DNA from: Candidatus Omnitrophota bacterium
GTDB lineage: Bacteria > Omnitrophota > Gorgyraeia > JABMRN01 > RBG-13-46-9
Direction: 5' to 3'
Length of the DNA stretch: 64,000 nt
NCBI GenBank assembly: GCA_043817155.1
Contig: JBDRHE010000008.1
Coordinates: 1,554 to 65,553, forward strand
Part shown: positions 3,921-51,200 of the stretch, in pieces
Numbering within the stretch: position 1 is the stretch's first letter
How the letters are laid out: each line of letters opens with the position of its first letter
Program-made: the position numbers and the translations under genes
The notes under the pieces: model-generated
Told to the model about the DNA's origin: nothing
Databases searched by the model: none
Seen by the model: only the letters and a program-made list of their open reading frames with translations

Positions 3921-4736
3921 ATGAAGAGACTAATTTCAACCGTGTTCGCAATAGTATTATGCGTCGTATCAACGGCGGTCTATGCGATAACGCAACGGAT
4001 GGAATCTGACGCAGTGGTTACGCGCGATAATGTTCGGATTGCCTACGAGCGCTATCAGAACGGCTCTGACTCCGTTGTTATCATCTGCCCAGGATTCTAT
4101 AATAGCAAGAAGAACAGATGGATGCGTAAGGCGGTAGAGCTAGTCTCTCCCGAATACGATGTCATGATATTTGACTTCAGGGGGCACGGGCAGAGCGGCG
4201 GCACCTTCACGTGGTCGGCGAAAGAGGACATGGATGTGGACGCCGTAGTGGATCGCGCAAAAGACTATGGATATAAGCGCATAGGGATACTTGCCTTTTC
4301 GCTGGGCGCGGCAGCATCGGTCAATGATGCGGCGCACAGAACCGATATAGACAGCATGGTCCTTATAAGCTGTCCGACAAGGTTCAATATGATAGATTTC
4401 CATTTCTGGAAGTTCGCGATGTTTTCGGACCTAAAAGACAATATCGAATGCAAGTGGGAAGGCAAAGGCGCCAGATACGGCAGCATCTTTTATCCGAAGA
4501 AAGATCCGATCGACGCGATACGCGCCATACACAATACGGCCATTCTCTTTATTCACGGCGATAATGATTGGGTGATCAATGACCGCCACTCAAGGAAACT
4601 ATACGAAGCGGCATCCGGCACAAAAAAGTTGGAAGTGATCAAGGGCGGCCTTCACGCCGAAAGGATAGTGCAGTTCTATCCGGAAAAACTAAAAAAAATT
4701 ATCCTTGAATGGTTCTCGGAAACGTTTGTACGTTAG
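3921..4736 (+). CDS. Secreted alpha/beta-fold hydrolase
   Basis: Signal peptide MKRLISTVFAIVLCVVSTAVYA. DFRGHGQSGG and GxSxG-like GILAFSLGAAAS nucleophile elbow. A C-terminal HGDND acid/His region. Confidence 0.55.
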   Translation: MKRLISTVFAIVLCVVSTAVYAITQRMESDAVVTRDNVRIAYERYQNGSDSVVIICPGFYNSKKNRWMRKAVELVSPEYDVMIFDFRGHGQSGGTFTWSAKEDMDVDAVVDRAKDYGYKRIGILAFSLGAAASVNDAAHRTDIDSMVLISCPTRFNMIDFHFWKFAMFSDLKDNIECKWEGKGARYGSIFYPKKDPIDAIRAIHNTAILFIHGDNDWVINDRHSRKLYEAASGTKKLEVIKGGLHAERIVQFYPEKLKKIILEWFSETFVR

Positions 4737-4787: not shown

Positions 4788-5282
4788 TTATTTTACGCTG
4801 CCAATTTTAAGTAAATTGTAATAGTTTAGCAGGCGGAAGTTAATTCTTATATAGGCTCCCAGGAAGTCGCTGATAAGCACGCCTTTGTAGCTGTTACCGA
4901 GAGCGCCGCGAAGCTCTTTTTGACCCCTGCCGGGCTCTATCCTGTAGACGGCATGCCTTTCATCGGCATAGCACCACAGCCACTTGTCTTTCCAACCGGT
5001 CTCATCGACGTTTAGATACGGCGTATCCGTAAGGCGCGCCTTTAATTGGTCGCAGAGAAGACTGTCTCGCATACGTATCTTTGTATCGAATCCAACGCAT
5101 GATGTGGGATCAAAGTCCATAGTGAACATTTCCTTGAAGAGCATCTTTATTTTACGATAGGGGACTGACAGCTGATAATGCAGGAAACCGGCTGGCTCTA
5201 AGGTCAGGAATTTGCTTGTTTCTACCAGCAATCTCGCTATAATAGATACCTGTATATAGCGAGAGGTTTCTCCTCGGCTCAA
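4788..5282 (-). pseudogene. IS66-like transposase fragment (truncated)
   Basis: 164 aa containing LNVDETGWKDKWLWCYADE ... KGVLISDFLGAY, which is paralogous to the DETGW...WvW...DGVLISDSLSAY region of the transposase at 1-951. It lacks the N-terminal zinc finger and the C-terminus. Confidence 0.6.
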
Positions 5283-5287
5283 AGGTT

Positions 5288-5319
5288 GGTTCTAACTTCG
5301 TTCAGCCAGCGACCCCAGC
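5288..5319 (+). repeat. 32-bp cassette-junction repeat, copy R1 (GGTTCTAACTTCGTTCAGCCAGCGACCCCAGC)
   Basis: Seen directly in the sequence. It is one of five same-orientation copies (5288, 5739, 6968, 7999, 9135). Confidence 0.85.
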
Positions 5320-5340
5320 ATTTTTCCTGAGTGATGAATA

Positions 5341-5739
5341 ATGACAGCAGTCGGCAAAAAAGATAATATGGCTATCCGGGCAACATGTCTGAATTGCATG
5401 GACGGCCGCGTGCAATTGCCGGTTCTAAATTGGATTCGCGAGAAATACAGTATCGATTTTGTGGATGTTATTACTGAAGCGGGCATCGATGGGGTTGTAG
5501 CTTCACAGGATAATATCGATGAGATTATTCGTAGCATTAATATCTCCGTTAACATTAATAAATCTGTCCGAATTTTTCTTGTTGGCCATCATGATTGCAA
5601 AGGTAACCCTGTTGATGAAGAAACTCATCGTGAAAACATAAACAAGGCTGTCGCGCGTTTGAAAGCGTATTGGCCAGAATTTGAGATTATTGGGCTTTGG
5701 GTTAACGGTCATTGGCAGGTGGAGGTTTGGTGCAAGTAG
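5341..5739 (+). CDS. Small beta-carbonic-anhydrase-like protein (CxDxR ... HxxC motifs)
   Basis: CLNCMDGRV and VGHHDCKGN match the beta-CA Zn-ligand pattern (C-x-D-x-R / H-x-x-C). At only 132 aa it is a minimal version of the fold. The start could instead be at 5368. Confidence 0.4.
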   Translation: MTAVGKKDNMAIRATCLNCMDGRVQLPVLNWIREKYSIDFVDVITEAGIDGVVASQDNIDEIIRSINISVNINKSVRIFLVGHHDCKGNPVDEETHRENINKAVARLKAYWPEFEIIGLWVNGHWQVEVWCK

Positions 5740-5793
5740 GTTCTAACTTTGTCCAGCCAGCGACCCCAGCTTTATAATGTTTTACAATGTTTC
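5739..5793 (+). repeat. Cassette-junction repeat copy R2 plus a 23-bp extension TTTATAATGTTTTACAATGTTT (promoter module)
   Basis: TTGTCC (5749-5754), an 18-bp spacer and TATAAT (5773-5778) form a sigma70-like promoter. The same extension is present at R4. Confidence 0.8.
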
Positions 5794-5920
5794 TTCAGAG
5801 TATTTGACAGGAAACAGATAAATGTGGGAAAAGAAAATCCATATGTTTCCTCCTACATGATACAAGTAGAAACATGAGCAACGAGATATTATAAATCATT
5901 TTCTGAAATAGGAGAAAACG

Positions 5921-6919
5921 ATGAATAAGCGCAGACTCATTGCTATTCTCGCTTACTTATTTATTATTTGCTCTATTCGATATTCTATTGCTGAAGTGGA
6001 GGTAAAAAAGGAATATTACGACAGCGGTCAGCTATATTCTGAATTACCTTACGAAAATGGAAAACTTAATGGTCTTGGTAAAACTTATTATGAGAATGGA
6101 CAATTGTTCTCAGAGGTAACATATGTGAATGGCGAATATGACGGCACAATGCGAGCTTATTATGAAAGCGGAGAGCTGGAATCAGAAATGCCTTACAGAA
6201 ATGGTGTCTTGAGCGGTATAGTGAAAGAATATTATAAAAACGAATCATTGCAAGCAGAAACACCATATCAAAATGGCAAAGTAAATGGTGTGGCCAAAAG
6301 TTACAGTGAGAATGGGATAATAGAATCTTTGATACCCTATAAAGATGACGAGATTGACGGGATCGCTAAAACCTATCGTGAGGGTAAAATAGACAGAGAA
6401 TCATCATATAAGGCTGGCAAGAGAGACGGCCTAGCGAAAGTCTATAACGCTGATGGCACATTGGACCATGAGATTCCTTATAAGAATGACCGAGTCGATG
6501 GAGAATTGAAATACTATGGAAGTGGTGGAAATGTGCAGGGATCTGGAACTTATAAGAATGGCGAACTAGTAGAAGCAAAATATTTTGACGGAAAAGATAT
6601 GTCAATAGAAACATTAGTTGGGTATGCAAAAGATGACATCTATTCACTAGGAGTTCTATTAGAGCGTTTCAAATTGGATACTGGCAGTTATCCGGATACA
6701 AGTGAAGGATTAAAATCATTGCTCGAAGAGCCTCCTTTGAAAACAAATTGGCAAGGGCCATACTCCTTATCAATGCCAATAGATCCGTGGGGAAATGATT
6801 ACCATTATGGGTATCCAGGCGTCCATAACAAAGATAGCTACGACTTGTCAACATTTGGGCCAGATGGCATAGAAAGCGAAGATGATATTACCAATTGGGG
6901 TAGTGAAGAAGGTCGGTAA
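5921..6919 (+). CDS. Secreted MORN/YwqK-type repeat protein with a C-terminal type II secretion pseudopilin (GspG-like) globular domain
   Basis: Signal peptide. About 9 repeats of Y(Y/K)xNG(x)L..E.PY.NGK.dG (YwqK/MORN type). The C-terminus DIYSLGVLLERFKLDTGSYPDTSEGLKSLLE...PIDPWGNDYHYGYPGVHNKDSYDLSTFGPDGIESEDDITNW matches the conserved GspG C-terminal signature (DPWG..Y.Y..PG....DL.S.G.DG......DI.NW). There is no class-III prepilin leader. Confidence 0.6.
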   Translation: MNKRRLIAILAYLFIICSIRYSIAEVEVKKEYYDSGQLYSELPYENGKLNGLGKTYYENGQLFSEVTYVNGEYDGTMRAYYESGELESEMPYRNGVLSGIVKEYYKNESLQAETPYQNGKVNGVAKSYSENGIIESLIPYKDDEIDGIAKTYREGKIDRESSYKAGKRDGLAKVYNADGTLDHEIPYKNDRVDGELKYYGSGGNVQGSGTYKNGELVEAKYFDGKDMSIETLVGYAKDDIYSLGVLLERFKLDTGSYPDTSEGLKSLLEEPPLKTNWQGPYSLSMPIDPWGNDYHYGYPGVHNKDSYDLSTFGPDGIESEDDITNWGSEEGR

Positions 6920-6967
6920 TAGAATGATTAATTAGGTTCCCAAAGGGAGCTCGTTTTTTGTTAAACA

Positions 6968-6998
6968 GGTTCTAACTTCGTCCAGCCAGCGACCCCGG
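6968..6998 (+). repeat. Cassette-junction repeat copy R3
   Basis: GGTTCTAACTTCGTCCAGCCAGCGACCCCGG. Confidence 0.85.
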
Positions 6999-7055
6999 TT
7001 CTTTTGAAAAAAGTAGAAAATATAACGAATAACATATTTAAAGGAGGTTATACAG

Positions 7056-7505
7056 ATGAAATGTCCTAAATGTGATTGCGCTCTCAGCAAAGTGCTTGTG
7101 GAGGTCCGGCCTGAATACGGTGCAGATATACTCCAAGATGCGGAACAAACAAGTGAGATAGAGCTTGACCAGTGCGTGAGCTGTAACGGCGTGTGGTTTG
7201 ATGTAAAAGAATTGGACCAATATTTGGCGGAGAAGTTGTTGATTTTAAATTCTCCTAAGATATCAGATTATAAGAAGCTCGATAAGAAGGTAGGTATGTG
7301 CCCGCGATGTAATCAAAAGATGGTTAAGGAGCCGGCACCTAAAGGAGCTGCTTTTATGGTTGATGTATGCAAAAAGTGCCAGGGTGTTTGGTTAGATAGC
7401 ACCGAACTTGATAAGATTGAAAAGAGGAATTTCTCGTTAGGAGAGAAGCACGCTCTTGTGTTTCGCCATCTGAAAGAGATATTTTTCAAAAGGGAGGGTA
7501 ATTAA
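7056..7505 (+). CDS. Zinc-ribbon protein with two CxxC...CxxC-GVWFD-EL domains (zf-TFIIB-like)
   Basis: CPKCD...CVSCNGVWFDVKELDQY and CPRCN...CKKCQGVWLDSTELDKIE. The GvWfD.gEL hallmark identifies the transcription-factor-type zinc-ribbon domain. Confidence 0.6.
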   Translation: MKCPKCDCALSKVLVEVRPEYGADILQDAEQTSEIELDQCVSCNGVWFDVKELDQYLAEKLLILNSPKISDYKKLDKKVGMCPRCNQKMVKEPAPKGAAFMVDVCKKCQGVWLDSTELDKIEKRNFSLGEKHALVFRHLKEIFFKREGN

Positions 7506-7507
7506 TT

Positions 7508-7951
7508 ATGGACTGCCCCAAATGTCTTGGTAAATTACAGAAGACAAAGATTAATATGTATGAGACTTCGGACATCGAAGAGCTTAAAGGAGCAGTTGCA
7601 GCGAAATCGCTAGAGATTGACCAGTGCTTTGTCTGTGGAGGCGTTTGGTTCGATAAAGGAGAGCTTGGTAAATATACGACCGAAAAGATAACAATAATTG
7701 ATGCCGCTTCAGTAGGCAAAACGCTTGATAAAGAGCTGGATGTGAAAGATGGAAAATGCCCGAAATGTTCAGTTGTGATGAAGAAGACGGCATATGAGAA
7801 AGAGCCGAGCATTACGCTCGATGTATGTGAAAAATGTGGAGGCATCTGGCTTGATTCTACGGAAATTGACCGAGTTGAAAGAGCGAATAAAGGAAAAATA
7901 GGATTTCTCGGACTTTTCTTCAAGGGATTTCAAAGACCAAAGGGAAAATAG
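7508..7951 (+). CDS. Paralogous zinc-ribbon protein (tandem duplicate of 7056-7505)
   Basis: Same two-domain architecture: CPKCLG...CFVCGGVWFDKGELGKY and CPKCS...CEKCGGIWLDSTEIDRVE. The start is 3 nt after the previous stop. Confidence 0.6.
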   Translation: MDCPKCLGKLQKTKINMYETSDIEELKGAVAAKSLEIDQCFVCGGVWFDKGELGKYTTEKITIIDAASVGKTLDKELDVKDGKCPKCSVVMKKTAYEKEPSITLDVCEKCGGIWLDSTEIDRVERANKGKIGFLGLFFKGFQRPKGK

Positions 7952-7998
7952 CAGTTTTATTTAGCATAGAGCTCCGGTTACTCTAATTACATAAAAAA

Positions 7999-8051
7999 GT
8001 TCTAACTTTGTCTAATCACTTACCCCAGCTTTATAATGTTTTACAATGTTT
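7999..8051 (+). repeat. Cassette-junction repeat copy R4 (degenerate core) plus the same 23-bp TATAAT extension
   Basis: GTTCTAACTTTGTCTAATCACTTACCCCAGC followed by TTTATAATGTTTTACAATGTTT. Confidence 0.75.
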
Positions 8052-8071
8052 GTTAATTACAAATCAAAGAA

Positions 8072-9091
8072 ATGAAAAAAATATCAAGCCTAAAAGAATA
8101 TAACGTATTTCTGCAAGAGGTAAAACAAAGAATCCGTTCTGCCCAATATGAGGCCCTTAAGGCGGTTAATAAAGAACTTATACAGCTGTATTGGGATATA
8201 GGAAAGATGATTGTTAATAGGCAAAAACAATACAGATGGGGGAAATCTGTTGTAGAAAATCTCGCTAAAGATATACAGGCAGAATTCCCCGGTGTTCGGG
8301 GATACTCGACTCAGAATTTGTGGTATATGAGGCAATTCTATTCGGAATACGTAAATAATGCAAATCTCCAACCGCTGGTTGGAGAAATCGGCTGGGCGCA
8401 TAATTTAGCTATAATGAGCAAGGTTAAGGATTTGTTAGAACGGGAGTTTTATATCCGCATGACAAGGCGTATGGGGTGGACTAAAAATGTGCTGATTCAT
8501 CAGATTGAAAATAAGACATATGAAAAAACGTTGCTCAATCAGACAAATTTCAAGAAGGCTCTTCCAGAAGAGATACGCAATCAGGCAAAATTGGCGGTGA
8601 AGGACGAGTATACCTTTAATTTCCTGGACCTGGGAGAAGAATATAAGGAAATGGAGCTTGAGAGGGCTTTAGTCGCCAAGATAAATCGTTTTCTTATTGA
8701 AATGGGCGGTTCTTTTGCGTTTATGGGAAATCAATTTCGCCTTGAGATCAATGGTAAGGAATTTTTCATTGATATCTTGCTATATCACCGCAAGCTCAAG
8801 TGTTTAGTGGCAATAGAGCTCAAGATTGGAGAATTCAAACCAGAATATGCCGGGAAGATGCAGTTTTACTTAGCAGCCCTCGATGATATAGTGAAAGCAA
8901 AAGGAGAGAATCCTTCGATTGGCATTATTCTATGTAAGGATAAAGACCGCACCATTGTCGAATACGCGCTCCGTGAAAGCAAGAAACCGATAGCGGTGGC
9001 GAAATATAGGATTACTACAAAACTGCCAAAAGAACTGAAGAAAGAATTACCGGCACCCGAGCAGATACAGAAGCTTTTTAAGGATATGTAG
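8072..9091 (+). CDS. YhcG/DUF1016-family PDDEXK nuclease
   Basis: N-terminal YhcG_N-like region (QLYWDIGKMI, GYSTQNLWYMRQFY, GWAHNLAIMS). C-terminal PD-(D/E)xK core (FIDILLYH ... LVAIELKIGEFKPEYAGKMQFY). Confidence 0.65.
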   Translation: MKKISSLKEYNVFLQEVKQRIRSAQYEALKAVNKELIQLYWDIGKMIVNRQKQYRWGKSVVENLAKDIQAEFPGVRGYSTQNLWYMRQFYSEYVNNANLQPLVGEIGWAHNLAIMSKVKDLLEREFYIRMTRRMGWTKNVLIHQIENKTYEKTLLNQTNFKKALPEEIRNQAKLAVKDEYTFNFLDLGEEYKEMELERALVAKINRFLIEMGGSFAFMGNQFRLEINGKEFFIDILLYHRKLKCLVAIELKIGEFKPEYAGKMQFYLAALDDIVKAKGENPSIGIILCKDKDRTIVEYALRESKKPIAVAKYRITTKLPKELKKELPAPEQIQKLFKDM

Positions 9092-9134
9092 CGAGCGCTG
9101 TTTAACGTAAAGTCGCTGGTCCCTCTATTAGACA

Positions 9135-9166
9135 GGTTCTAACTTTGTCCAGCCAGCGACCCCAGC
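9135..9166 (+). repeat. Cassette-junction repeat copy R5
   Basis: GGTTCTAACTTTGTCCAGCCAGCGACCCCAGC. Upstream, GTCGCTGG (9108-9115) can pair with CCAGCGAC inside the repeat. Confidence 0.85.
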
Positions 9167-9273
9167 ATTTTGACGAAGACAAATGGGTGGCCCCTTTGAT
9201 CCGCCTGATTCTATCGCAGAAGAAGGTTTCCGTAGCTTATCCACGCAAATCTATCAATAAACAATATTAATAC

Positions 9274-9678
9274 ATGAAACTCTGTAGCGCATGTCTATTG
9301 GGTATTAGGTGCAGGTTCGATGGCAAAAGCAATGCCGAGAAAGCTATAATAGAGCTAGCGCGAACCGAAACGCTTATTCCGGTCTGTCCTGAACAGCTCG
9401 GGGGCTTGTCTACACCAAGAGACCCGGCCGAAAGGCTGGGGAATAGGGTGATCACAAAAGCAGGCAGGGATGTCACAAAAGAATATAGGACAGGATCTCT
9501 GGAAGTCCTGAAGCTGACCAAGATATACAATATTAAAGAGGCTATTCTTAAACAGGGAAGTCCCGCTTGCGGCCGCGGCCTTATTTGCGATGGGACATTT
9601 TCCGGAAATGCTATTAAGGGAAATGGTGTTACAGCCGAGCTCTTGCAGAAAAACGGCATTAATATTATAGCAAAGTAG
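9274..9678 (+). CDS. DUF523 (TudS-like, 2-thiouracil desulfurase family) protein
   Basis: SACLLGIRCRFDG ... VCPEQLGGLSTPRDPAE ... GSPACG: the characteristic Cys ligands and CPE..GGL..PR motif of DUF523. Confidence 0.6.
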   Translation: MKLCSACLLGIRCRFDGKSNAEKAIIELARTETLIPVCPEQLGGLSTPRDPAERLGNRVITKAGRDVTKEYRTGSLEVLKLTKIYNIKEAILKQGSPACGRGLICDGTFSGNAIKGNGVTAELLQKNGINIIAK

Positions 9679-9819
9679 GATCTCAGATCTTTGGGAAAAG
9701 GGGATGACAGAGAAAGAACTATGAAGACTCACTCACCGGCTACACATCATGTGACTATTTTAGCATAACAAATCAGCATTTATGCTATAATATCATCCGG
9801 AAAACATAGGAGGAAAAAA

Positions 9820-10203
9820 GTGGGCGGTAAAGTAGTTCTGGTAATCGATGATCAACAGGAGATGTGCAAACTGGTTAAAGAGAGTCTGGAAATAGCCGGA
9901 GACTATAAGGTAGCCATGGCTTTCAGCGGCCGGGAGGGGCTTAAGGCCGCGAAATCGATAAAACCGCACCTGATCCTACTCGACGTTATGATGCCTGCTA
10001 TGGATGGATTCGAGGTCTTAAAGTTGCTCAAGGAGAATAGCGCCACAAAGTCTATCCCGGTAGTTATGTTAACGGCAGTAGATAATGAGACAGCAAAATT
10101 GAAGGCTATGCAATTATACGATGAAGACTATCTGATAAAACCCGCACCTATAGAGAAATTGAGAAGCACCGTGGATAATGTGTTAAGAAGAAGAGGGCTC
10201 TGA
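9820..10203 (+). CDS. Single-domain response regulator (CheY-like receiver)
   Basis: GTG start with a good RBS (AGGAGGA). VLVIDDQQE ... LILLDVMMPAMDGFEVLK ... the phospho-acceptor Asp and the conserved Lys are in the expected context. Confidence 0.75.
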   Translation: MGGKVVLVIDDQQEMCKLVKESLEIAGDYKVAMAFSGREGLKAAKSIKPHLILLDVMMPAMDGFEVLKLLKENSATKSIPVVMLTAVDNETAKLKAMQLYDEDYLIKPAPIEKLRSTVDNVLRRRGL

Positions 10204-34551: not shown

Positions 34552-37500
34552 ATGATACATAGTCACTTACCCAAAAAACAGGGCCTCTATGACCCGCGAT
34601 TCGAAAAGGATTCGTGTGGCGTGGGATTTGTTTGCGATATTAAAGGCATTAAAACCAATAATATCGTTAAGCAGGGTCTTAAGGTGCTCGAAAGATTGGC
34701 CCATCGGGGAGCGGTCGGAGCCGATCCGAAGACAGGTGATGGCGCCGGGATCCTTATACAGATACCGCATGAATTCTTTTCACACGCATGTAAAGAGCAG
34801 TCAATTACCCTGGGCCCTTCCGGGAGCTATGGAACCGGACTGGTCTTCTTGCCGCAAGATGAGAAGCAGCGCCAGATCTGTAAAGATGTATTCTCAAAGG
34901 TTGTAAAGGATGAAGGACAGAAGCTTCTCGGTTGGCGTACCGTGCCTGTTGATAGCTCTACCGTAGGAAAGGTGGCAAGAAACACCCAGCCTGCTATTGA
35001 ACAGATATTTATTTCTAAGAGCGATCACATAAAATCAGAACTTGATTTTGAAAGAAGACTTTATATTATCAGAAAGAGAACCGAGAATACCCTAAGAGAT
35101 GCCAAGCTAAAACAAGGATCATTCTTCTATATAACTAATATATCATGTCGTACATTTTCCTATAAAGGGCTTCTGATGCCGCATCAGCTGGGCGAATTCT
35201 TTCTCGACCTAAAGGATGAGCGCATAAAAAGCTCTTTATGCCTTGTGCATTCCCGCTACAGTACAAATACATTCCCCACATGGGATCTCTCCCAACCATT
35301 TAGATTTTTAGCTCATAACGGGGAGATAAATACGCTGCACGGTAATATTAACTGGATGCGCGCCAGGGAGGGGTTGCTAAAGAGCCGATTGTTTGGCAAA
35401 GACATAGAAAAACTGAAACCTGTAATTGTGCCAGGGGGAAGTGATTCTGCGACCATAGATAATGTATTTGAGCTTCTTGTCCTATCGGGTAGGTCGCTTG
35501 AGCACGCTATGACTATGCTTGTGCCGTCTGCATGGGGGAAATACACATTAATTGATGATAATCTCAAGTCTTTCTTCAGATATCACGCCTGTTTTATGGA
35601 GCCTTGGGACGGGCCTGCAGCCATTGCTTTTACGGATGGAACCCGCATAGGCGCTGTTCTTGACAGGAATGGCTTACGGCCGGCCCGTTATATTATAACG
35701 AAGGATGGACTTGTTGCGCTGGCTTCAGAGGTGGGGGTACTTGATATAAAGCCTGAAGATATCAGGACTTCAGGCAGGCTTGAGCCCGGGAAGATGCTCT
35801 TTATTGATACCGAGCGGGGGCGCGTCGTTGATGATAAGGAGATCAAAGAGAGTATAGCAACCCATGCCCCATATGGCAAGTGGAACAAAAAATACATGGT
35901 GGAACTCGATAAGCTATCCGCTCCGCGAATAAAAAAGAAGAAAGAGATGCTTGGTATCCTGGCGGCGCAAAAGGCATTTGGTTATACCAGAGAAGATATC
36001 AACGTTATCCTAAAGCCTATGGCGGTATCCGGTAAGGAGCCTATCGGATCTATGGGAAACGATACGCCGCTTGCAGTTCTCTCAAAGAGGCCGAACCTGC
36101 TTTATAACTATTTTAAACAGCTCTTTGCGCAGGTTACAAATCCGGCCATAGACTCTATTAGAGAAGACTTTGTGATGAGCATAAGGAGTTTTATAGGCAC
36201 GCAGCGAAATATGCTTGATGAGACCGAAGAACATTGCATTAAGCTGGATGTGAAGGAACCCGTTCTTTCTGACGACGACGTTGCCAAGATCCGCAGCTTG
36301 AAAAGAAAAGGATTCAGAGCAAAGACAATATCGATGCTCTATGATGTGTCGGGTAAGAGGGCCTTTCTAAAGGCCCTGGATAGGATATGCCGGGATGCTG
36401 AAACTGCTGTCAAGAAGGGGTTTTCATTTATTATCTTGAGCGATAAAGGTGTTAACAGAAAGCAGGCGGCGCTGCCGGCACTTCTTGCTACCGGCTGCCT
36501 GCATCATCATCTGGTGAGAATGGCCGTGCGAACTCAAGTCGGCATCATTATTGAGAGCGCAGAACCCCGTGAAGTATTTCACTTTGCGCTTCTCTTTGGC
36601 TACGGGGCCGATTGTATTAACCCGTATCTTGCGTATAGCACGCTGGGGCAGCTTATCAAAGAGAAAGATCTGAAGCTACCGCTTAAAGCAGCGGTCAAGA
36701 ATTACAGGAAGGCTGTTCGTGGCGGAATCCTGAAGATAATGTCGAAGATGGGTATATCTACGATACGAAGCTACAAAGGCGCCCAGATATTTGAAGCCCT
36801 CGGCCTTAGCGAAGAGGTAATTGAGCGTTGTTTCGCAGGGACCAATTCCCGTATAGACGGGATCGGATTTAATATTATCGCCGAAGAGACAAGCGCGCGG
36901 CACCTGGAAGCTTTTGCGGATAAAGAGGGTGGCGCGGAGTTTCTTGCCACGGGCGGGCTCTATCAGTGGAAGAGGGACGGGGAATACCACCTGTGGAATC
37001 CCGAAAGCATTGCGTGTCTCCAGGACGCGACGCGAAAGAACGATTACAACGCATACAAGAGATTTGCTAATATGATAAATGACCAATCGAGTAATCCGAC
37101 AACGCTGAGAAGCCTTCTTAGGTTTCGCAAGGCCGAACCTATAGCCATAAACGAGGTTGAATCCGTAGAATATATAGTGAAGCGCTTTGCCACCGGCGCG
37201 ATGAGTTTCGGATCGATCAGCGGATCGATGCATGAGACACTGGCAATAGCGATGAACAGATTGGGTGCGAAATCGAATACGGGAGAAGGGGGAGAAGACC
37301 CTGCAAGATTCCAGCCACTCCCAAATGGCGATTCTGCCAGAAGCGCCATAAAGCAGGTTGCTTCGGGCAGGTTCGGTGTGACTACAAACTATCTGATAAA
37401 TGCAGATGAACTTCAGATAAAGATCGCTCAAGGGGCGAAACCCGGGGAAGGCGGGCAATTGCCGGGACACAAAGTGAGCGCGATCATTGCCAAAACAAGA

Positions 37501-39084
37501 TATACAACGCCCGGCGTAACACTTATATCGCCTCCGCCGCACCACGATATCTATTCGATCGAGGATCTTGCGCAGCTGATATTCGATCTAAAGAACGTGA
37601 ATCCGCGCGCCAGGATAAGTGTGAAACTGGTTTCTGAGATCGGGGTCGGCACTATTGCCGCAGGTGTGGCAAAAGGCCATGCCGACATGATACTTATTTC
37701 AGGTGGAGACGGGGGAACAGGGGCGTCTCCGCTCAGTTCAATAAAGCATGCGGGGGTGCCCTGGGAGCTCGGTCTCTCGGAGACTCACCAGACGCTCGTT
37801 TTGAATGATTTAAGAAGCAGGGTGCGGATCCAGACGGATGGCCAGATGCGAACAGGCAGGGATGTCGCCATCGCTGCTCTACTCGGCGCTGAAGAGTACG
37901 GTTTCTGTACCGCAGCGCTCATAGTTTCCGGATGTGTTATGCTCAGGCACTGCCATCTAAATAACTGTTCTCTTGGCATAGCGACGCAGGACGATATCCT
38001 GGAGAGGAGATTTCGCGGGAATCCTGACTACGTTGTAAACTTCTTCCGCTTTATAGCGCAGGATCTCAGGGAGATAATGGCGAGTCTTGGTTTAAGAGAT
38101 CTTGACTCCATGATAGGTAGAACGGATTTTCTGCAAGTCGACAGATCAATTATACCTGTCAGATCGAAAGGTATAGACTATTCGAAGATACTTTATAAAC
38201 CCGATGTGCCGAACTCATTCGGCACGCGCTATTTAGTTAGCCAGGATCATTCCATTGAGAAGATCCTGGATAGAAGGCTTATAGAGCTTTCGAAGGACGC
38301 GCTTCTTAAAGGCATTCCAGTAAAGATAGAGCTCGATATCAATAATACGAATAGAACTACAGGAGCTATGCTGAGCGGGGAGGTTTGCAGGCTTCACGGC
38401 GAAAGAGCGCTGGCTGAGGATACTATCCATTGCAAATTTACCGGTGTTGCCGGACAGAGTTTCGGTGCGTGGCTAGCCAGCGGAATAACTTTTGAGCTGG
38501 AAGGCATGGCCAACGATTATATCGGCAAAGGGATCTCCGGAGGAAAGATCATTGTTTATCCGGGTAAAACATCTACCTATAAACCTGAAGAGAACGCGAT
38601 AATAGGTAATACAACTTTTTATGGCGCTATAAGCGGAGAGGCGTATATAAGAGGCTTTGCCGGGGAGAGATTCTGTATAAGGAATTCCGGACTTAGCGCT
38701 GTTGTGGAAGGCGTCGGGGATCACGGCTGCGAATATATGACAGGCGGAAGGGTCGTAGTCTTAGGAAGAACGGGCAGGAACTTTGCTGCCGGCATGTCAG
38801 GCGGTATTGCGTACGTATATGACGCAGACTCGAATTTTAAATCCAGATGCAATACCGACATGATCGTTCTGGAGAAACTTTCTAAGGACGACATAGAGAC
38901 GGTATGCAATCTGCTTCGTAATCACTACAAATATACAGAAAGCCGGTATGCAAAGGAGATCTTGGATAACATGGATATGTATCTGAAGAAATTTATTAAA
39001 GTCATGCCCATAGAATATAAACGCATCCTTGAAGGGGCGAAGGTTGATGAGAAGCTGGGTGCGGGAGAATATACTGAAGGATGA
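34552..39084 (+). CDS. gltB: Glutamate synthase large subunit
   Basis: 1510 aa. The N-terminal amidotransferase Cys (CGVGFV), the FMN domain and the C-terminal GXXG-rich beta-helix. Confidence 0.9.
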   Translation: MIHSHLPKKQGLYDPRFEKDSCGVGFVCDIKGIKTNNIVKQGLKVLERLAHRGAVGADPKTGDGAGILIQIPHEFFSHACKEQSITLGPSGSYGTGLVFLPQDEKQRQICKDVFSKVVKDEGQKLLGWRTVPVDSSTVGKVARNTQPAIEQIFISKSDHIKSELDFERRLYIIRKRTENTLRDAKLKQGSFFYITNISCRTFSYKGLLMPHQLGEFFLDLKDERIKSSLCLVHSRYSTNTFPTWDLSQPFRFLAHNGEINTLHGNINWMRAREGLLKSRLFGKDIEKLKPVIVPGGSDSATIDNVFELLVLSGRSLEHAMTMLVPSAWGKYTLIDDNLKSFFRYHACFMEPWDGPAAIAFTDGTRIGAVLDRNGLRPARYIITKDGLVALASEVGVLDIKPEDIRTSGRLEPGKMLFIDTERGRVVDDKEIKESIATHAPYGKWNKKYMVELDKLSAPRIKKKKEMLGILAAQKAFGYTREDINVILKPMAVSGKEPIGSMGNDTPLAVLSKRPNLLYNYFKQLFAQVTNPAIDSIREDFVMSIRSFIGTQRNMLDETEEHCIKLDVKEPVLSDDDVAKIRSLKRKGFRAKTISMLYDVSGKRAFLKALDRICRDAETAVKKGFSFIILSDKGVNRKQAALPALLATGCLHHHLVRMAVRTQVGIIIESAEPREVFHFALLFGYGADCINPYLAYSTLGQLIKEKDLKLPLKAAVKNYRKAVRGGILKIMSKMGISTIRSYKGAQIFEALGLSEEVIERCFAGTNSRIDGIGFNIIAEETSARHLEAFADKEGGAEFLATGGLYQWKRDGEYHLWNPESIACLQDATRKNDYNAYKRFANMINDQSSNPTTLRSLLRFRKAEPIAINEVESVEYIVKRFATGAMSFGSISGSMHETLAIAMNRLGAKSNTGEGGEDPARFQPLPNGDSARSAIKQVASGRFGVTTNYLINADELQIKIAQGAKPGEGGQLPGHKVSAIIAKTRYTTPGVTLISPPPHHDIYSIEDLAQLIFDLKNVNPRARISVKLVSEIGVGTIAAGVAKGHADMILISGGDGGTGASPLSSIKHAGVPWELGLSETHQTLVLNDLRSRVRIQTDGQMRTGRDVAIAALLGAEEYGFCTAALIVSGCVMLRHCHLNNCSLGIATQDDILERRFRGNPDYVVNFFRFIAQDLREIMASLGLRDLDSMIGRTDFLQVDRSIIPVRSKGIDYSKILYKPDVPNSFGTRYLVSQDHSIEKILDRRLIELSKDALLKGIPVKIELDINNTNRTTGAMLSGEVCRLHGERALAEDTIHCKFTGVAGQSFGAWLASGITFELEGMANDYIGKGISGGKIIVYPGKTSTYKPEENAIIGNTTFYGAISGEAYIRGFAGERFCIRNSGLSAVVEGVGDHGCEYMTGGRVVVLGRTGRNFAAGMSGGIAYVYDADSNFKSRCNTDMIVLEKLSKDDIETVCNLLRNHYKYTESRYAKEILDNMDMYLKKFIKVMPIEYKRILEGAKVDEKLGAGEYTEG

Positions 39085-43126: not shown

Positions 43127-47954
<4,828 letters not shown>

Positions 47955-48200: not shown

Positions 48201-48229
48201 TTGAAAATATAGCCCTGGTATGTTATAAT
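48201..48229 (+). promoter_or_regulatory. Sigma70-like promoter for the second carB
   Basis: TTGAAA, a 17-bp spacer and TATAAT (48224-48229). RBS ACGGAGG before the ATG at 48285. Confidence 0.55.
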
Positions 48230-48284
48230 GTCGAAAATCTCAAGGGTGGGATTTAATCAAGCAGAGAAAAGTTACGGAGGTAGC

Positions 48285-51200
48285 ATGCCAAAGAGGACGG
48301 ATATCCACAAGGTTCTTATCATCGGTTCGGGACCAATCATTATAGGGCAAGCCTGTGAGTTCGATTATTCCGGCACACAAGCATGTAAAGCATTAAAGGA
48401 AGAAGGTTACGAGGTCGTTCTTGTGAACTCAAACCCCGCTACAATAATGACCGATCCGGGTATGGCTCACAAGACTTATATTGAGCCGCTTACATTAGAG
48501 AGCGTTGAGAAGATCATTGAAAAGGAGAGACCGGATGCCCTCCTTCCTAATCTGGGAGGTCAGACAGGCCTTAATCTCTCTTCCGGTCTTCATAAGGCCG
48601 GTATTCTGAAGAAATATAATGTTGAGATCATAGGCGTTAAAGCAGATGCTATTGAGCGCGGTGAAGACAGGACCGCGTTTAAAAATACAATGAAGAAGCT
48701 CGGTATAGAGATGCCGAGATCGAAGGCATGCAATTCTGTCGAAGAGGCCGAAAAGATAATAGAAGAGATCGGCTACCCCGCGGTTCTGAGACCCGCATAT
48801 ACTATGGGAGGAACGGGTGGGGGAATAGCGTACAATATAGACGAGCTAAGAACGATCGTATCGAGAGGTCTCAATTGCAGTATTGCGCACCAGGTTCTTG
48901 TTGAAGAATCCGTAATAGGCTGGGAAGAGCTTGAGCTCGAGGTTGTAAGGGACCAGAAGAATAAGAAGATAACAGTCTGCTTTATAGAGAATATCGATGC
49001 TATGGGTGTTCACACCGGGGACAGCTTCTGTTCAGCGCCCATGCTGACCGTTCCAAAGCCGCTCCAAAAGAAGATGCAGGACCTCTCTTACAAGATCGTT
49101 GACGCGATAGGTGTTGTGGGAGGCACAAATATCCAATTTGCCCACAATCCCAAGGATGGAAGACTCGTTGTGATAGAGATCAATCCTAGAACATCCCGGT
49201 CTTCTGCGCTCGCATCCAAGGCAACGGGCTTTCCGATAGCCCGCATCTCGACTAAGCTTGCCGCAGGCATTAACATGGATGAGATACCTTACTGGCGTAA
49301 GGGGACATTGGATAAGTATGAACCCTGGGGAGAGTATGTAGTAATTAAATTCGCGCGCTGGGCATTTGAGAAATTCCCGCGCGCTACGGATGTGCTGGGA
49401 ACGCAGATGAAGGCCGTGGGTGAAGTAATGAGCATCGCCAAGACATTTAAGGAGGCGTTCCAGAAGTCTATCCGTTCCCTTGAAATCAAGAGATATGGTC
49501 TTGGAGGAGCCAAGAACTTCAAAGAGCTTTCCCTGGGCGGGTTAAAAGAGAAATTGGCAAATCCGTCAAGCGAACGCGTCTTTCTTATGTACGAAGCGCT
49601 GCGTAAGGGCATGGAGATAGAAGAGCTTCATAAGTTAACCCATATCGGACGGTGGTTTATAAATGAGATGAAGGAGCTTGTCTATTTTGAAGAGGAGATC
49701 CTTAAATCTTCATGGAAAGATCTCCCGGATGAAAAACTTGCTAAAGCAAAGGAATGGGGATTCTCCGATAAATATCTGTCCGGTTTATTTGACATAAAAG
49801 AGAAAGAGGTAAGGGAGAGGAGGCTTTCGATAGGAAAGAAGGCAGCCTACGAACCGGTTCCCGTAAGCGGCGTGGAGAACGCGGCTTATTACTATTCCAC
49901 CTACAACAATGCCGAAGATAAGGTTCCGGTTTCACCCAACAAGAAGATACTGATACTTGGGGGCGGGCCAAACAGGATAGGGCAGGGTATCGAATTTGAC
50001 TATACCTGTGTTCACGCCGCGTTTGCCTTGCGTGAAGAAGGGTATGAATCTGTCATGATAAACTGCAATCCCGAGACCGTATCTACTGATTACGATACTT
50101 CAAATAAGCTATACTTTGAGCCTCTTACAGTAGAAGATGTGCTTGCTGTATACGAGAAGGAGAAGCCGGATGGCGCTATTGTCCAGTTCGGAGGGCAGAC
50201 CCCGCTCAATTTAGCGCAGGAACTTAAGGATAATGGAGTTAAGATTATCGGGACAACCCCGGAGAGTATCAGACTAGCCGAAGACAGGGAGCGTTTCAGG
50301 GAGAAGATGATAGCGCTTGGCATACCGCAACCGGAAAGCGGTACAGCCAGGTCGCTTGAAGAGGCGCTCAAGATCGCTGAAAGGATCGGTTATCCTCTTA
50401 TGGTGCGGCCTTCCTTTGTTCTCGGCGGACGCGGAATGCAGGTTGTCTATGATGACCAGATGCTGCGAAAATACACCCAAGAAGCGATCGAGATAACACC
50501 CGAATACCCGATGCTGATCGATAAATTCCTTGAACAGGCGGTCGAGACAGAGGTCGATGCGTTATCAGACGGTAAAGAGACTTTCGTTGCCGCTATAATG
50601 GAACACATTGAACTTGCCGGTGTACATTCAGGGGACAGCGCGTGCGCAATACCTACAAGAACAATTAAGGAAAAGCATCTAAAGACAATAAGGAGATATA
50701 CAGAAGACATTGCAAGAGAATTTAAAGTAGTCGGGCTCATGAACATACAGTTTGCTATATGTGATGACAAAGTATATATCCTGGAGGCCAATCCAAGGGC
50801 GTCGCGTACGGTTCCACTTATCTCGAAGATCGTTTGCATCCCGCTTGCGCGGATAGCGACACAGGTGATAATGGGCAGACCTCTCTCCGATTTCCCGGAA
50901 CTTAAGACGCATAAGTTGCCATATGTGGGCGTTAAAGAGGCGGTCTTTCCGTTCAATATGTTTCCGGAGGTCGATCCGCTTCTGGGTCCTGAAATGAAGG
51001 CAACAGGAGAGGTCATGGGGATCGGGAAGACTTTTGGCATGGCCTTTTACAAGGCGGAAGAGGCAGCAGGTACAAAGCTTCCCCTGGAAGGGAATGTCTT
51101 GCTTACCGTCGCCGACAAGGACAAGAAATTTTTACTTCCGATCGCCAAACGCCTGAAGAAGCTTAACTTCAATATAATTGCAACAGAGGGTACGAACCGT

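Follow-up and report, generated by a model that had tools for sequence, protein, structure and literature searches.

Several described systems carry cargo genes between copies of a short repeated sequence. SCC and SCCmec elements, which are units of 3-60 kb, depend on the Ccr large serine recombinases (LSRs) and have their attB at the 3' end of rlmH/orfX. Islands linked to tRNA or tmRNA genes, such as the tycheposons, hold direct repeats of ~20-50 bp between accreted cargo modules. The pdif sites of Acinetobacter plasmids, substrates of XerC/XerD, are 28 bp long, consist of two 11-bp arms and lie inverted around modules. The locus described here, in a stretch of 64,000 nucleotides of Omnitrophota DNA (the 64-kb window), shares features with each of these systems and with integrons. 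The best reading, which we hold with slightly more belief than doubt, is that a duplex att-type recombination site joins mobile cassettes and is served by a putative recombinase acting in trans, by a logic like that of integrons and SCC elements in a system that would be a member of neither.

The window contains five co-oriented copies (n=5) of GTTCTAACTTyGTyCAGCCAGCGACCCCA, starting at 5289, 5740, 6969, 7999 and 9136, the fourth of which is degenerate. All five are on the plus strand, and no sixth copy was found in the rest of the window. The first-pass annotation had described five same-orientation copies of a 32-bp element, and this count holds: four match its 32-mer with at most one mismatch (n=4, at 5288, 5739, 6968 and 9135; shuffles expect 0), and the degenerate copy at 7999 was recovered by a repeat search and a search with a 14-nt core. 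The 32-bp element is a real repeat, but the true functional unit appears to be a bipartite sequence of ~38-45 bp in a family with diverged members. Copy R1 (5289-5317; 29-mer GTTCTAACTTCGTTCAGCCAGCGACCCCA; nhmmer 46.6 bits) is without the consensus left half and has a T-run downstream. It follows no plus-strand gene and the next ATG is just 21-24 nt away, contrary to the earlier description of every copy as sitting just after a plus-strand stop and 40-190 bp before the next gene.

The genes between the sites are all on the plus strand, and their earlier identification proved correct by Pfam. The minimal beta-carbonic-anhydrase-like gene Pro_CA_2 (5341-5739; E=5e-42) ends in a TAG stop that directly abuts R2 (site 5740-5768; 5740-5792 with its leader). 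The next cassette gene encodes a fusion of MORN repeats and T2SS pseudopilin G (MORN_2+T2SSG; 5921-6919), and downstream of it are a terminator-like hairpin found by terminator scan (6935-6951) and R3 (6959-6997; 52.0 bits), in which the consensus left half TGTTAAACAG precedes GTTCTAACTTCGTCCAGCCAGCGACCCCG. A two-gene cassette (7056-7505 and 7508-7951) encodes tandem paralogous zinc-ribbon proteins, each with two Zn_ribbon_TFIIB matches, and contains the internal direct repeats D4/D5. R4 (site 7999-8027; 7999-8051 with its leader) has a degenerate middle and retains both conserved boxes of the site family. It is followed by a cassette gene for a YhcG/DUF1016 PDDEXK nuclease (8072-9091) and by R5 (9126-9164; TATTAGACAG then GTTCTAACTTTGTCCAGCCAGCGACCCCA; 57.9 bits), the window copy closest to the family consensus. 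After this last site comes a DUF523/2-thiouracil desulfurase gene (9274-9678). No site lies downstream of it in the window, and the gene is either a final cassette lacking a site or the start of the backbone.

Neither edge first proposed for the array is supported. The array was described as starting flush with the 5' end of an IS66-like transposase fragment. The minus strand does carry an internal piece of the gene for an IS66-family DDE transposase (4788-5184; DDE_Tnp_IS66, E=3.5e-10), but its Pfam homology covers roughly 4840-5183 only, with residues 34-147 of a 164-residue ORF aligned to profile positions 15-141 of 284, and ends ~100 bp before R1. The fragment is a neighbor of the array and stands outside the system; a second partial IS66 copy is at 1-951, next to DUF6788 at 952-1317. 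Between the IS66 homology and R1, a different conserved module, here called B-type, forms the left edge of the array (5209-5285, plus strand). It has a perfect -10 box (TATAAT, 5238-5243), a weak -35 (TTGTTT, 16-nt spacer) and a hairpin, GCGAGAGG-TTT-CTCCTCGGC. The module usually ends in ...ACGAGAGGGACCCCAATTTTT and is here fused to R1. It is 82% identical to positions 138-208 of L013, further co-oriented copies were found with an nhmmer profile in L004, L036, L024, L011 and L022, and it has no match in Rfam. At the other edge, the 14-mer AAGACTCACTCACC (9724-9737), supposed to be a solo MITE terminus, has no second copy, and at least one match of this type occurs in 18 of 100 shuffles.

Two junctions carry a promoter-like leader, TTTATAATGTTTTACAATGTTT, in exact copies at 5771-5792 (R2) and 8030-8051 (R4). 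The copies are identical, as had been reported, with a length of 22 nt as written rather than 23. The TTGTCC/TTGTCT-18-TATAAT arrangements that they complete are indeed the two best promoter-like matches of the region. The leader is conserved before YhcG in L063/L065, where the site plus leader of L063 shares 88% identity with 5737-5795 of the window, and it recurs in L009 and L032. The description of the junctions as promoter-bearing has partial support from these comparisons. It does not extend to most junctions, which are without the TATAAT leader, so the leader is a property of certain cassettes or variants of the junction rather than of the site itself.

The site family comprises 54 distinct copies on ~45 independent contigs, mainly from Candidatus Omnitrophota; several matches assigned elsewhere come from short, possibly misbinned MAG contigs of other phyla. 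The site is bipartite, with box 1 (GTyCkAAm), ~14 variable nt, box 2 (GACCCCA) and then a T-run. A weak left half, yATyArACAG, precedes it, and box 1, GTTCTAAC, lies within a partial dyad, CAGGTT-CT-AACyTG. Copies are clustered, low in number and always co-oriented within a locus. Every multi-copy sequence in the first data set has its sites on one strand (19 "extra" copies, P ~2e-6 under random orientation), as do L043 and L061-L065, and the skeleton pattern gave 50 matches in array orientation and 0 in reverse, with ~0.25 expected. Of 26 whole contigs, 11 end within 300 bp of a site, compared with 5.9 expected (P ~0.015). A scan of 185,579 species genomes found the site pattern on only 15 contigs. 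Folding of all five window junctions on both strands gave z = -0.8 to +1.6, no better than shuffles, which bears out the first-pass annotation in its failure to recognize attC-type symmetry. The alifold structure of the site is empty, and the sole candidate stem is not maintained. The site sequence stays constant in hosts of 33-59% GC. Taken together, the absence of a fold on either strand, the empty alifold and this constancy suggest that the site is recognized as primary sequence.

The genes between sites vary: the same ones are found at the same site in other orders and with other neighbors. The window has the order zinc ribbons, site, YhcG, site, DUF523; L063-65 have site, YhcG, site, Pro_CA_2, site; and L061/62 have site, YhcG plus a 413-residue gene, site. 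In blastn comparisons, the YhcG block aligns with L063 from position 7999, precisely the first G of the upstream site, up to the stop codon. Homology of the Pro_CA_2 block continues through the downstream site in five genomes with differing neighbor genes. Pro_CA_2 is followed directly 3' by a site or decayed site in L041, L043, L046, L052 and L063/65, again with differing neighbors. As far as the 3' edge of the site, L024 and L036 share 96% identity; past it they are unrelated. L001, L003 and L026 have a common right flank of the last site and different upstream cassettes. Because these genes also lie between copies of this site in other uncultivated bacteria, but in other orders, the site looks like the joint of a cassette system that is not a classical integron. 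Cargo at the sites includes Fic, MNT-HEPN, AAA_13, AbiEii-like AAA_21, AAA_14-DUF4143, RhuM-Fic and YhcG, a set that by gene content appears typical of mobile DNA. YhcG homologs ~75% identical occur across many phyla, the pattern expected of a horizontally spreading gene. The collections searched contained no close relative of the window's genome, and neither an empty site nor a circular cassette nor presence/absence polymorphism between strains was seen, which counts against the cassette reading. Other observations do so too. Pro_CA_2, with hundreds of Omnitrophota homologs, looks like a lineage-conserved backbone gene, the housekeeping-type gene purD lies between two sites in L043, and the site has decayed in L041, L043 and L052.

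No recombinase was found in the 64-kb window, which also counts against cassettes. As noted at first, there is no integrase: a Pfam scan of the called proteins, which left out one 1510-residue ORF (34552-39084) taken as glutamate synthase from its neighbors, gave only the IS66 fragments as mobile-type matches. The tyrosine-recombinase box II motif is in no ORF of at least 100 residues, IntI is absent from the window and every locus, and no recombinase is consistently adjacent to the site in other loci. In L046, L016, L034 and L024, an LSR gene or remnant is found on the opposite strand, to the right of the site. The L034 remnant is placed against the site just as the intact LSR of L016 is placed against the 3' end of tRNA-Ser. 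Against a role for these enzymes, the four share only 23-33% identity, a tRNA-Ser site is evidently the one used by the L016 LSR, and 2.5 kb separates the L046 LSR from the site. Furthermore, LSR integration normally gives hybrid attL and attR and not regenerated identical sites.

The site is also targeted by an insertion sequence. In L002, an IS1111-type element (DEDD_Tnp_IS110 plus Transposase_20) interrupts a site precisely at its -1|0 junction. Its putative seekRNA, 3' of the transposase gene, matches the site at the element's own insertion point as GGTTAGAACC followed by TAAACAGG, a pair found in 15 of 20,000 shuffles. The layout matches the described seekRNA architecture (PMC11187229). 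That the site serves as an IS1111 target marks it as a stable repeated sequence and is silent on its function.

In the favored cassette reading, the site would be a double-stranded, non-palindromic, attachment-type sequence of ~38-45 bp that marks the joints between independently acquired cassettes of one or two genes; site spacings are mostly ~0.4-2.6 kb and up to ~4 kb. An element or cassette with one site copy would recombine with a resident copy and leave one copy on each side, and repeated events would build a co-oriented array. The recombinase would act in trans from outside the window; the best candidate is an LSR encoded by a subset of the incoming elements, by analogy with the SCC composite islands of staphylococci. 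Pro_CA_2, conserved in Omnitrophota, would offer one primary landing site at its 3' end, and some cassettes may bring their own sigma70-type promoter directly after the site (R2, R4). We infer the site-specific, rather than homologous, nature of the exchange, the position of the crossover and the type of enzyme.

It seems unlikely that the site is instead a protein-bound regulatory sequence (an operator, UP-like promoter module, factor-dependent terminator or 3'-end signal) that travels with transferred genes, the arrays being neighbors under common control. Such a sequence could account for the fact that in 42 of 55 cases the site comes just 3' of a co-oriented gene's stop codon, which the site itself sometimes supplies, for the T-run, for the -35-like hexamer that R2 and R4 give to TATAAT in a leader kept in L063, L009 and L032, and for the perfect -10 box of the B-type module. 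It does not account for the breaks of homology blocks at site edges, and it fits poorly with a site that has no hairpin or conserved RNA structure, is nearly identical across hosts of such different GC content and in most copies has no promoter-like -10 at a fixed distance. In L035/L029, L031 and L038, every gene that flanks the site is on the strand opposite to it. An element placed before many core genes genome-wide would also favor regulation, but the site is restricted to a few clusters per genome, with only three in 224 kb of Omnitrophota DNA.

Similarly improbable is a non-autonomous mobile repeat of 29-45 bp, REP- or MITE-like and perhaps moved by DEDD/IS1111-type or HUH enzymes, that inserts after stop codons; the genes would then not be cassettes, and homologous recombination would shuffle them. 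Homology breaks at both edges of the 29-mer, so sharp on both sides as to suit such a repeat and leaving the crossover position a matter of inference; 29 bp is also about the minimum length for RecA-dependent exchange. Copies between ordinary genes such as purD, copies that decay where apparently not maintained and the association with an IS1111-type element point the same way. However, the very low copy number, strict clustering and co-orientation are unlike REPs and MITEs, terminal inverted repeats and a palindrome are absent, no target-site duplication is evident, and the IS in L002 interrupts the site and does not carry it. Pro_CA_2 plus site is, moreover, conserved as a block at 75-86% DNA identity. 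A classical integron fragment, or CALIN (an attC cluster without integrase), is very improbable. The units of one or two genes are mostly co-oriented, the site starts at or just past the stop codon and GTTCTAAC is near the attC inverse core RYYYAAC. attC sites are also known targets of the IS1111 family (PMC11187229). The absence of a hairpin and of conserved RNA structure nevertheless indicates that the site is not attC: there is no imperfect palindrome, consensus structure or paired downstream GTTRRRY core, and the site is conserved in sequence across hosts, whereas attC is conserved in structure. The lack of IntI and of the box II motif agrees with this.

The proposal of an integron-type cassette array or hotspot with a junction element thus gains comparative evidence and loses its IS66-flush start and MITE end. 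Like integron arrays and CALINs, the locus consists of co-oriented, short, unrelated units with a site at or just past each stop, cassettes are reordered in other genomes, TA- and defense-type cargo is frequent and an IS1111-family element targets the site. Unlike them, it has a conserved duplex sequence without a hairpin or R''/R' pairing, no IntI, attI or tyrosine recombinase nearby, and its own promoters at some junctions. SCC and SCCmec share with it att-core direct repeats between tandem elements, many without a recombinase, a landing site that overlaps a conserved gene at its 3' end (Pro_CA_2 in this case), LSRs in some inserted blocks (L046) or as site-abutting remnants (L034, L024), and cargo with R-M and defense genes. 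The units here are much smaller than in SCC, many arrays are away from Pro_CA_2, the repeat is longer (29-45 bp), and the mutually distant LSRs are only candidates for acting on the site. In tRNA/tmRNA islands, direct repeats likewise separate cargo modules; box 1 resembles the T-loop GGTTCnAAyC, the conserved block ends in CCA before the T-run, and the L016 and L034 enzymes lie alike at a tRNA-Ser 3' end and at the site. Yet no tRNA or tmRNA gene adjoins an array, Infernal, even at E<=10, found nothing in the site that matches a truncated tRNA or tmRNA, and a tyrosine integrase is absent here. Discrete gene modules, a short conserved site and a recombinase encoded elsewhere in the genome recall pdif modules, but the sites here are asymmetric, repeat directly and show no sequence relationship to dif. 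Finally, the site is not among the described IS1111 targets (attC ends, REPs, Tn21-family 38-bp inverted repeats), whereas the L002 element itself has the DEDD transposase of the family and a downstream non-coding region in which a top-strand and then a bottom-strand match to the site overlap where the element is inserted, the arrangement described for seekRNAs (PMC11187229).

The 32-bp repeat reported in the first-pass annotation is real. It has four matches in the window with at most one mismatch (5288, 5739, 6968 and 9135), while shuffled sequences give none, and the degenerate fifth copy placed at 7999 retains the first 14 and the last 8 nt. All five copies lie on the plus strand, and the 64-kb window holds no others. 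The gene identities proposed between the repeats are borne out by Pfam: Pro_CA_2 (5341-5739), a protein with MORN_2 and T2SSG domains (5921-6919), two zinc-ribbon paralogues (7056-7505 and 7508-7951), YhcG/DUF1016 (8072-9091) and, beyond the last copy, a 2-thiouracil desulfurase/DUF523 protein (9274-9678). The extension said to be common to two junctions, TTTATAATGTTTTACAATGTTT, does follow copies R2 (5740) and R4 (7999) exactly on the plus strand, at 22 rather than 23 nt; together with TTGTCC or TTGTCT within the repeat it forms the two best sigma70-like matches of the region. The proposed borders of the array did not survive. Its supposed flush contact with an IS66 transposase fails, since Pfam homology spans only residues 34-147 of the minus-strand open reading frame (approximately 4840-5183), and the stretch adjoining copy R1 (5209-5285) is a conserved module other than IS66. 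The presumed MITE terminus at the far end is one 14-mer whose partner is absent.

Besides two IS66 fragments, the gene content of the window is ordinary chromosomal (uppP/bacA, ornithine decarboxylase, glnA, amtB, carAB, pyrG and others), and the closest homologue of the flanking 362-aa gene is 35% identical and lacks synteny. The IS66-family remnants lie at 1-1317, partial at the window edge and paired with a DUF6788 gene, and at 4788-5184; DUF6788 is also found directly after Pro_CA_2 and the site in another locus, L046. Two carbamoyl-phosphate synthase large-chain paralogues, both full-length (43127-46363 and 48228-51533), are separated by 2 kb containing CTP synthase, and a DUF1846 gene follows the pair.

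A pattern covering all five window copies matched 15 contigs among 185,579 species genomes, at one or two contigs per genome, and 25 metagenome contigs, with zero matches in viral contigs, plasmids and phages. The profile derived from these matches recovers 65 site copies, 54 of them distinct. The hosts are mostly Omnitrophota, Candidatus Undivivens and Candidatus Aceula among them; the remaining site-bearing contigs come from bins labelled Elusimicrobiota, Planctomycetia, Auribacterota, Firestonebacteria, Bacillota or deltaproteobacterium; several of these contigs are short, and misbinning is possible. The site is unchanged across loci of 33-59% GC, which indicates that its spread past one lineage is real. 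Its consensus is yATyArACAG followed by GTTCTAACTTsGTCCAsCCAGCsACCCCA and a T-rich stretch. The left 10 nt are weakly conserved, and the left edge of the 29-mer is sharp. The 29-nt frame is retained in diverged relatives, GTTCGAAAnTCGTnGnTGAAnnGACCCCA in L011 and L004 and GTCCTAACCTCTGCGACTACGTGACCCCA in L038, which makes the element bipartite, with a first conserved box (box 1), approximately 14 variable nt and a second conserved box (box 2). A skeleton pattern of this frame has 50 matches in the array orientation and 0 in reverse (chance approximately 0.25). In every multi-copy locus the copies share a single strand, and co-oriented direct repeats occur at every window junction and in at least 15 other loci. 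The spacing is mostly about 0.4-2.6 kb, in a few cases 2.8-4.1 kb.

The units between the sites recur in other orders and beside other neighbours, the criterion applied to integron cassettes, as found for YhcG and Pro_CA_2 in the window, L061/62 and L063-65. YhcG homologues of approximately 75% identity are present in Omnitrophota, Planctomycetes, Elusimicrobia, Firestonebacteria, Syntrophia, Bacteroidota, Nitrospinae and others, and the two closest are both bounded by sites and have different neighbours. In the window, the order is zinc ribbon, R4, YhcG, R5 and DUF523; in L063-65 it is site, YhcG, site, Pro_CA_2 and site; in L061/62 a pair of sites encloses YhcG and a 413-aa gene. The blastn homology between the window and L063 begins precisely at position 7999, the initial G of R4, takes in the promoter-like leader and ends at the YhcG stop codon (9092). 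Similarly, members of a clade of 132-aa Pro_CA_2 proteins have a site, or a decayed copy, directly 3' of the TAG stop in six independent contexts (the window, L041, L043, L046, L052 and L063/65), and the flanking genes are different in each. DNA homology of 75-86% covers Pro_CA_2 and the downstream site, and more distant homologues of 123/124 aa are without the site. The junction at the Pro_CA_2 stop is a candidate for a primary attB of the SCC kind, which would overlap the 3' end of a conserved host gene; many arrays are without Pro_CA_2, and L063 has a cassette upstream of it.

Homology also breaks at the site. Up to and including the site, L024 and L036 agree at 96% identity, and beyond it they are unrelated. 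A 102-bp stretch, made up of 75 nt and the site, is 99% identical between L001 and L026, which diverge after it; the right flank of the last site is common to L001, L003 and L026, whose upstream cassettes differ. Whole contigs end within 300 bp of a site in 11 of 26 cases, against 5.9 expected (P approximately 0.015), an excess that fits assembly breaks at repeated or variable junctions.

In 42 of 55 cases the gene 5' of the site points the same way as the site. That gene ends from 7 nt inside the site to about 100 nt before it, sometimes with a TAA or TAG stop within the site itself. On the downstream side, strand and distance are variable, and in L035/L029, L031 and L038 all neighbouring genes are on the strand opposite to the site. 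Accessory or defence-like genes recur as cargo: Fic (5), rve transposases (3) and ResIII (3), along with MNT-HEPN, AAA_13, AbiEii-like AAA_21, AAA_14-DUF4143, RhuM-Fic, SPFH, NUDIX and TPM. Non-accessory cargo also exists. In L043, from Candidatus Aceula meridiana, purD lies between two sites in an array that runs GSHPx, site, purD, site, membrane protein, site, a 588-aa gene with Pro_CA_2 and a decayed site.

Several smaller features accompany these arrays. A toxin-antitoxin-like MNT-HEPN pair, 81% identical between L032 (1400-1450) and L027 (7520-7570) and flanked by sites only in L032, has its own TTGACA/TACAAT promoter and a duplicated operator-like repeat, GTTCTCAAAATGA. An ORF-less module of about 100 nt (L001 56-132, L026 3301-3410, L002 3375-3486), flanked by the box-2-like CCCCAATTTT and the next site, is 88-99% identical among its three contigs, which were assigned to different phyla, and may represent a small-RNA cassette. 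L001 (2650-2797), L003 (1600-1746) and L026 (4660-4817) have a conserved segment on the right side of their last site, with the hairpin GCCCTGCTTGAACACAGGGC and then AGGCTTCGAAAAA; in L003 the segment and the 3' end of a convergent Fic gene overlap. The last site is just upstream of type IV pilus/T2SS-like operons in L005, L010 (gspE/pilB-gspF) and L020 (pilM-pilN, 5172-7777), and a stand-alone CheY-like response regulator stands just after it in the window (9820-10203), L010 and L013. These associations may reflect a preferred chromosomal neighbourhood. L022 (3519-3629) has a c-di-GMP-I riboswitch match that is cut by the contig end and scores 34.4 bits, against the Rfam gathering score of 35.

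Conservation at the site is of the primary sequence. Folding of 130-nt windows at all five junctions, on both strands and with DNA parameters, gave z = -0.8 to +1.6 relative to 200 shuffles, and RNAalifold returned an empty structure for the 54 distinct copies on either strand. Rfam had no match at the site or the B module, the hairpin motif that adjoins R1, in the window region and six related loci. A terminator on a GGTC...GACC stem was rejected because the stem is not kept, its variable positions pairing in 48% and 67% of copies. REP/BIME-type repeats were rejected as well: the palindrome is absent, matches fall on one or two contigs per genome, and the site is confined to three clusters in 224 kb of Omnitrophota DNA that, apart from the window, was picked irrespective of the site. 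As it neither folds nor is dispersed, the element falls outside the attC, REP, terminator-hairpin and structured-RNA classes. The attC hairpin, an imperfect palindrome that folds as a single strand by R''-L'' pairing with L'-R', was rejected, as neither window junction folding nor alignment folding shows its structure. In terms of the attC core pair, RYYYAAC...GTTRRRY inverted and 50-140 bp apart, the site has GTTCTAAC, which is near RYYYAAC; the partner GTTRRRY, or a complementary L box, is absent downstream in the window and in 21 other copies. CALINs are by definition without IntI, of which the scanned window proteins also show no trace, and on the folding and core-pair results a classical CALIN is effectively excluded.

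Two other explanations dispense with a dedicated recombination joint. The repeat could be a protein-bound regulatory signal, and sigma70-like -35/-10 elements with 10 of 12 matches do occur at R2 and R4 and are kept in L063, L009 and L032. Over the 54 copies, the first -10-like hexamer is without a fixed position, so a sigma70 promoter module, with its hexamers 16-18 nt apart, is not a fixed part of the site. A regulatory role as the explanation is improbable. Alternatively, a tiny self-propagating repeat may have spread and homologous exchange followed; copies in direct orientation on one strand and clustering in a few places have to be reconciled with such propagation, and we give this explanation a similarly low probability. 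On the best-supported reading, the repeat is a duplex site of attachment type, where units of one or two genes are gained, lost and reordered. We infer the recombination step from the recurrence of these units and the breaks in homology. The window array would have arisen by serial insertions beside Pro_CA_2, carried out by a recombinase encoded elsewhere.

Known classes of duplex site were compared with the element. Its reverse complement begins with GGGGTCG and is 38 nt long, like the 38-bp inverted repeat of the Tn3 family; this identity was rejected, as no locus has a Tn3 transposase and the element lacks both an inverted partner and the inner ACGYTAAG box. Comparison by eye led to the rejection of Xer/dif, Cre/FRT-type 13-8-13 and hix-type symmetry, since the arms are not inverted repeats. 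A CRISPR-like array was rejected too, with at most two exact copies per contig, kilobases apart. By eye only, the site resembles a tRNA 3' end, box 1 looking like a T-loop and the conserved block closing with CCA and a T-run. Infernal gave this likeness no support: 55-nt stretches ending at the site had no tRNA or tmRNA match at E<=10, truncated matches included. A tRNA- or tmRNA-gene att remnant was rejected, as ARAGORN found no tRNA in the window and no tRNA or tmRNA genes adjoin the arrays. Literature searches for the site sequence and for comparable systems returned nothing relevant.

A second conserved motif, the B module, is co-oriented with the sites. Copies, numbered here with the site on the plus strand, are present in the window (5209-5285), L013 (125-231), L004 (1395-1507), L011 (2147-2244), L024 (1821-1860), L022 (3073-3108 and approximately 2290-2340) and L036 (7427-7520). 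The motif, of about 50 nt and often preceded by a sigma70-like promoter, has the pattern cGAGAGGTTTyCCCTCG-nnnAnTAC-GAGAGG-GACCCCA-aTTTTT, so that the module ends with the site's own box 2 and a T-run. GACCCCA...TTT is strongly strand-biased in the B-module loci (31 vs 2 matches). The central CCCTCG can pair with either flanking CGAGAGG and looks switch-like. In the window the module is fused to R1; in L004 and L011 it is inside arrays; in L013 it heads a one-cassette array of module, AAA ATPase, site and response regulator. The B module may be a promoter-bearing variant of the junction or a platform-like element.

No tyrosine or serine recombinase was found by Pfam among the called proteins of the window, in a scan that covered all but one 1510-aa ORF (34552-39084); Phage_integrase likewise had no match among the scanned proteins, and the tyrosine-recombinase box II motif is in no ORF of at least 100 aa from 65 loci. 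Large serine recombinases (LSRs) are the only recombinase family that recurs at site loci, always right of the site and on the opposite strand. The LSR genes of L046 and L016 (4379-5965) are intact, the former lying 2.5 kb from Pro_CA_2 and a site and being followed by DUF2924 and a type I restriction-modification system. L034 and L024 have C-terminal remnants, the one ending about 50 nt from the site, the other abutting the B module. In L016 only a few nucleotides separate the conserved LSR C-terminus from the CCA terminus of a complete tRNA-Ser, an arrangement typical of elements integrated at tRNA 3' ends; L034 is arranged alike, the site standing where L016 has the tRNA end. The L016 tRNA-Ser(GGA) gene (4445-4534) is convergent with the LSR gene, whose reading frame runs through it, and is 3.8 kb from the junction site. 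Additional LSR remnants suggested by tblastn in L017, L033, L026, L040 and L019 were discounted because the matches are driven by translation of the site itself. Box 1 lies within a partial dyad, CAGGTT-CT-AACyTG, and serine recombinases cut dyads of this kind at the central dinucleotide. LSR integration usually gives hybrid sites. Given this, and given that the LSRs are mutually only 23-33% identical and were found in 4 of approximately 45 loci, it is rather doubtful that an LSR is the cognate enzyme, and the family is kept as a candidate lead only.

The site is itself a target for a mobile element. L002 contains a complete IS1111-type element of 1.44 kb (3487 to approximately 4926) whose protein has DEDD_Tnp_IS110 (Pfam E=3.5e-17) and Transposase_20 (5.9e-23) domains. 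L002 also has the ~100-nt module found before the site in L001 and L026; the module continues as far as ...CATCAAATAG, where the element interrupts it, and a degenerate 29-mer lies beyond the element. In IS1111-family elements, a seekRNA from the non-coding region 3' of tnp matches first the top and then the bottom strand of the target, with overlap at the insertion point, and the family is known to target attC ends, REPs, Tn21-type inverted repeats and short linear sites (PMC11187229). The L002 element shows both features of the family described there, the transposase domains and the non-coding target matches. Here, 3' of the transposase gene, GGTTAGAACC (4670-4679) is complementary to positions -1 to +8 of the site, and 14 nt further on TAAACAGG (4694-4701) is identical to its positions -7 to 0; the overlap between these matches is GG, the insertion point. 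Such a pair arose in 15 of 20,000 shuffles, a count in which correct order and overlap were not yet required. Judged by these matches, the non-coding region is a putative natural seekRNA with a directly readable target. The insertion shows that the intact junction (left half and box 1) is a stable, recurrent target, which does not by itself give the site's own role.

Even conservatively, the site is conserved over very different hosts, adds a new natural target, with its readable seekRNA, to those of IS1111 elements, and is accompanied by a second uncatalogued motif, the B module. If the site is a recombination joint, these arrays would be a second, structurally different answer to the integron's task of stockpiling and reshuffling single genes, in phyla known from metagenomes alone. 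The site and its recombinase would be a new pair with a long, specific duplex target, of practical interest for genome engineering, and in MAGs a simple sequence search for the site would point to accessory-gene hotspots and to places where assemblies are likely to break. It is conceivable, though short of probable, that Omnitrophota and neighbouring uncultivated phyla harbor an undescribed integron-analogous gene-capture system, with a conserved ~40-bp duplex site instead of a folded attC, a non-IntI recombinase (possibly an LSR clade in trans), its own promoter-bearing B "platform" module and its own dedicated IS1111-type parasite. Although the tests that define integrons (attC fold, core pair and IntI) failed here and the array probably stands outside the SCC composite islands as well, its logic is like that of both, and with SCC islands it also shares direct repeats of an att core.
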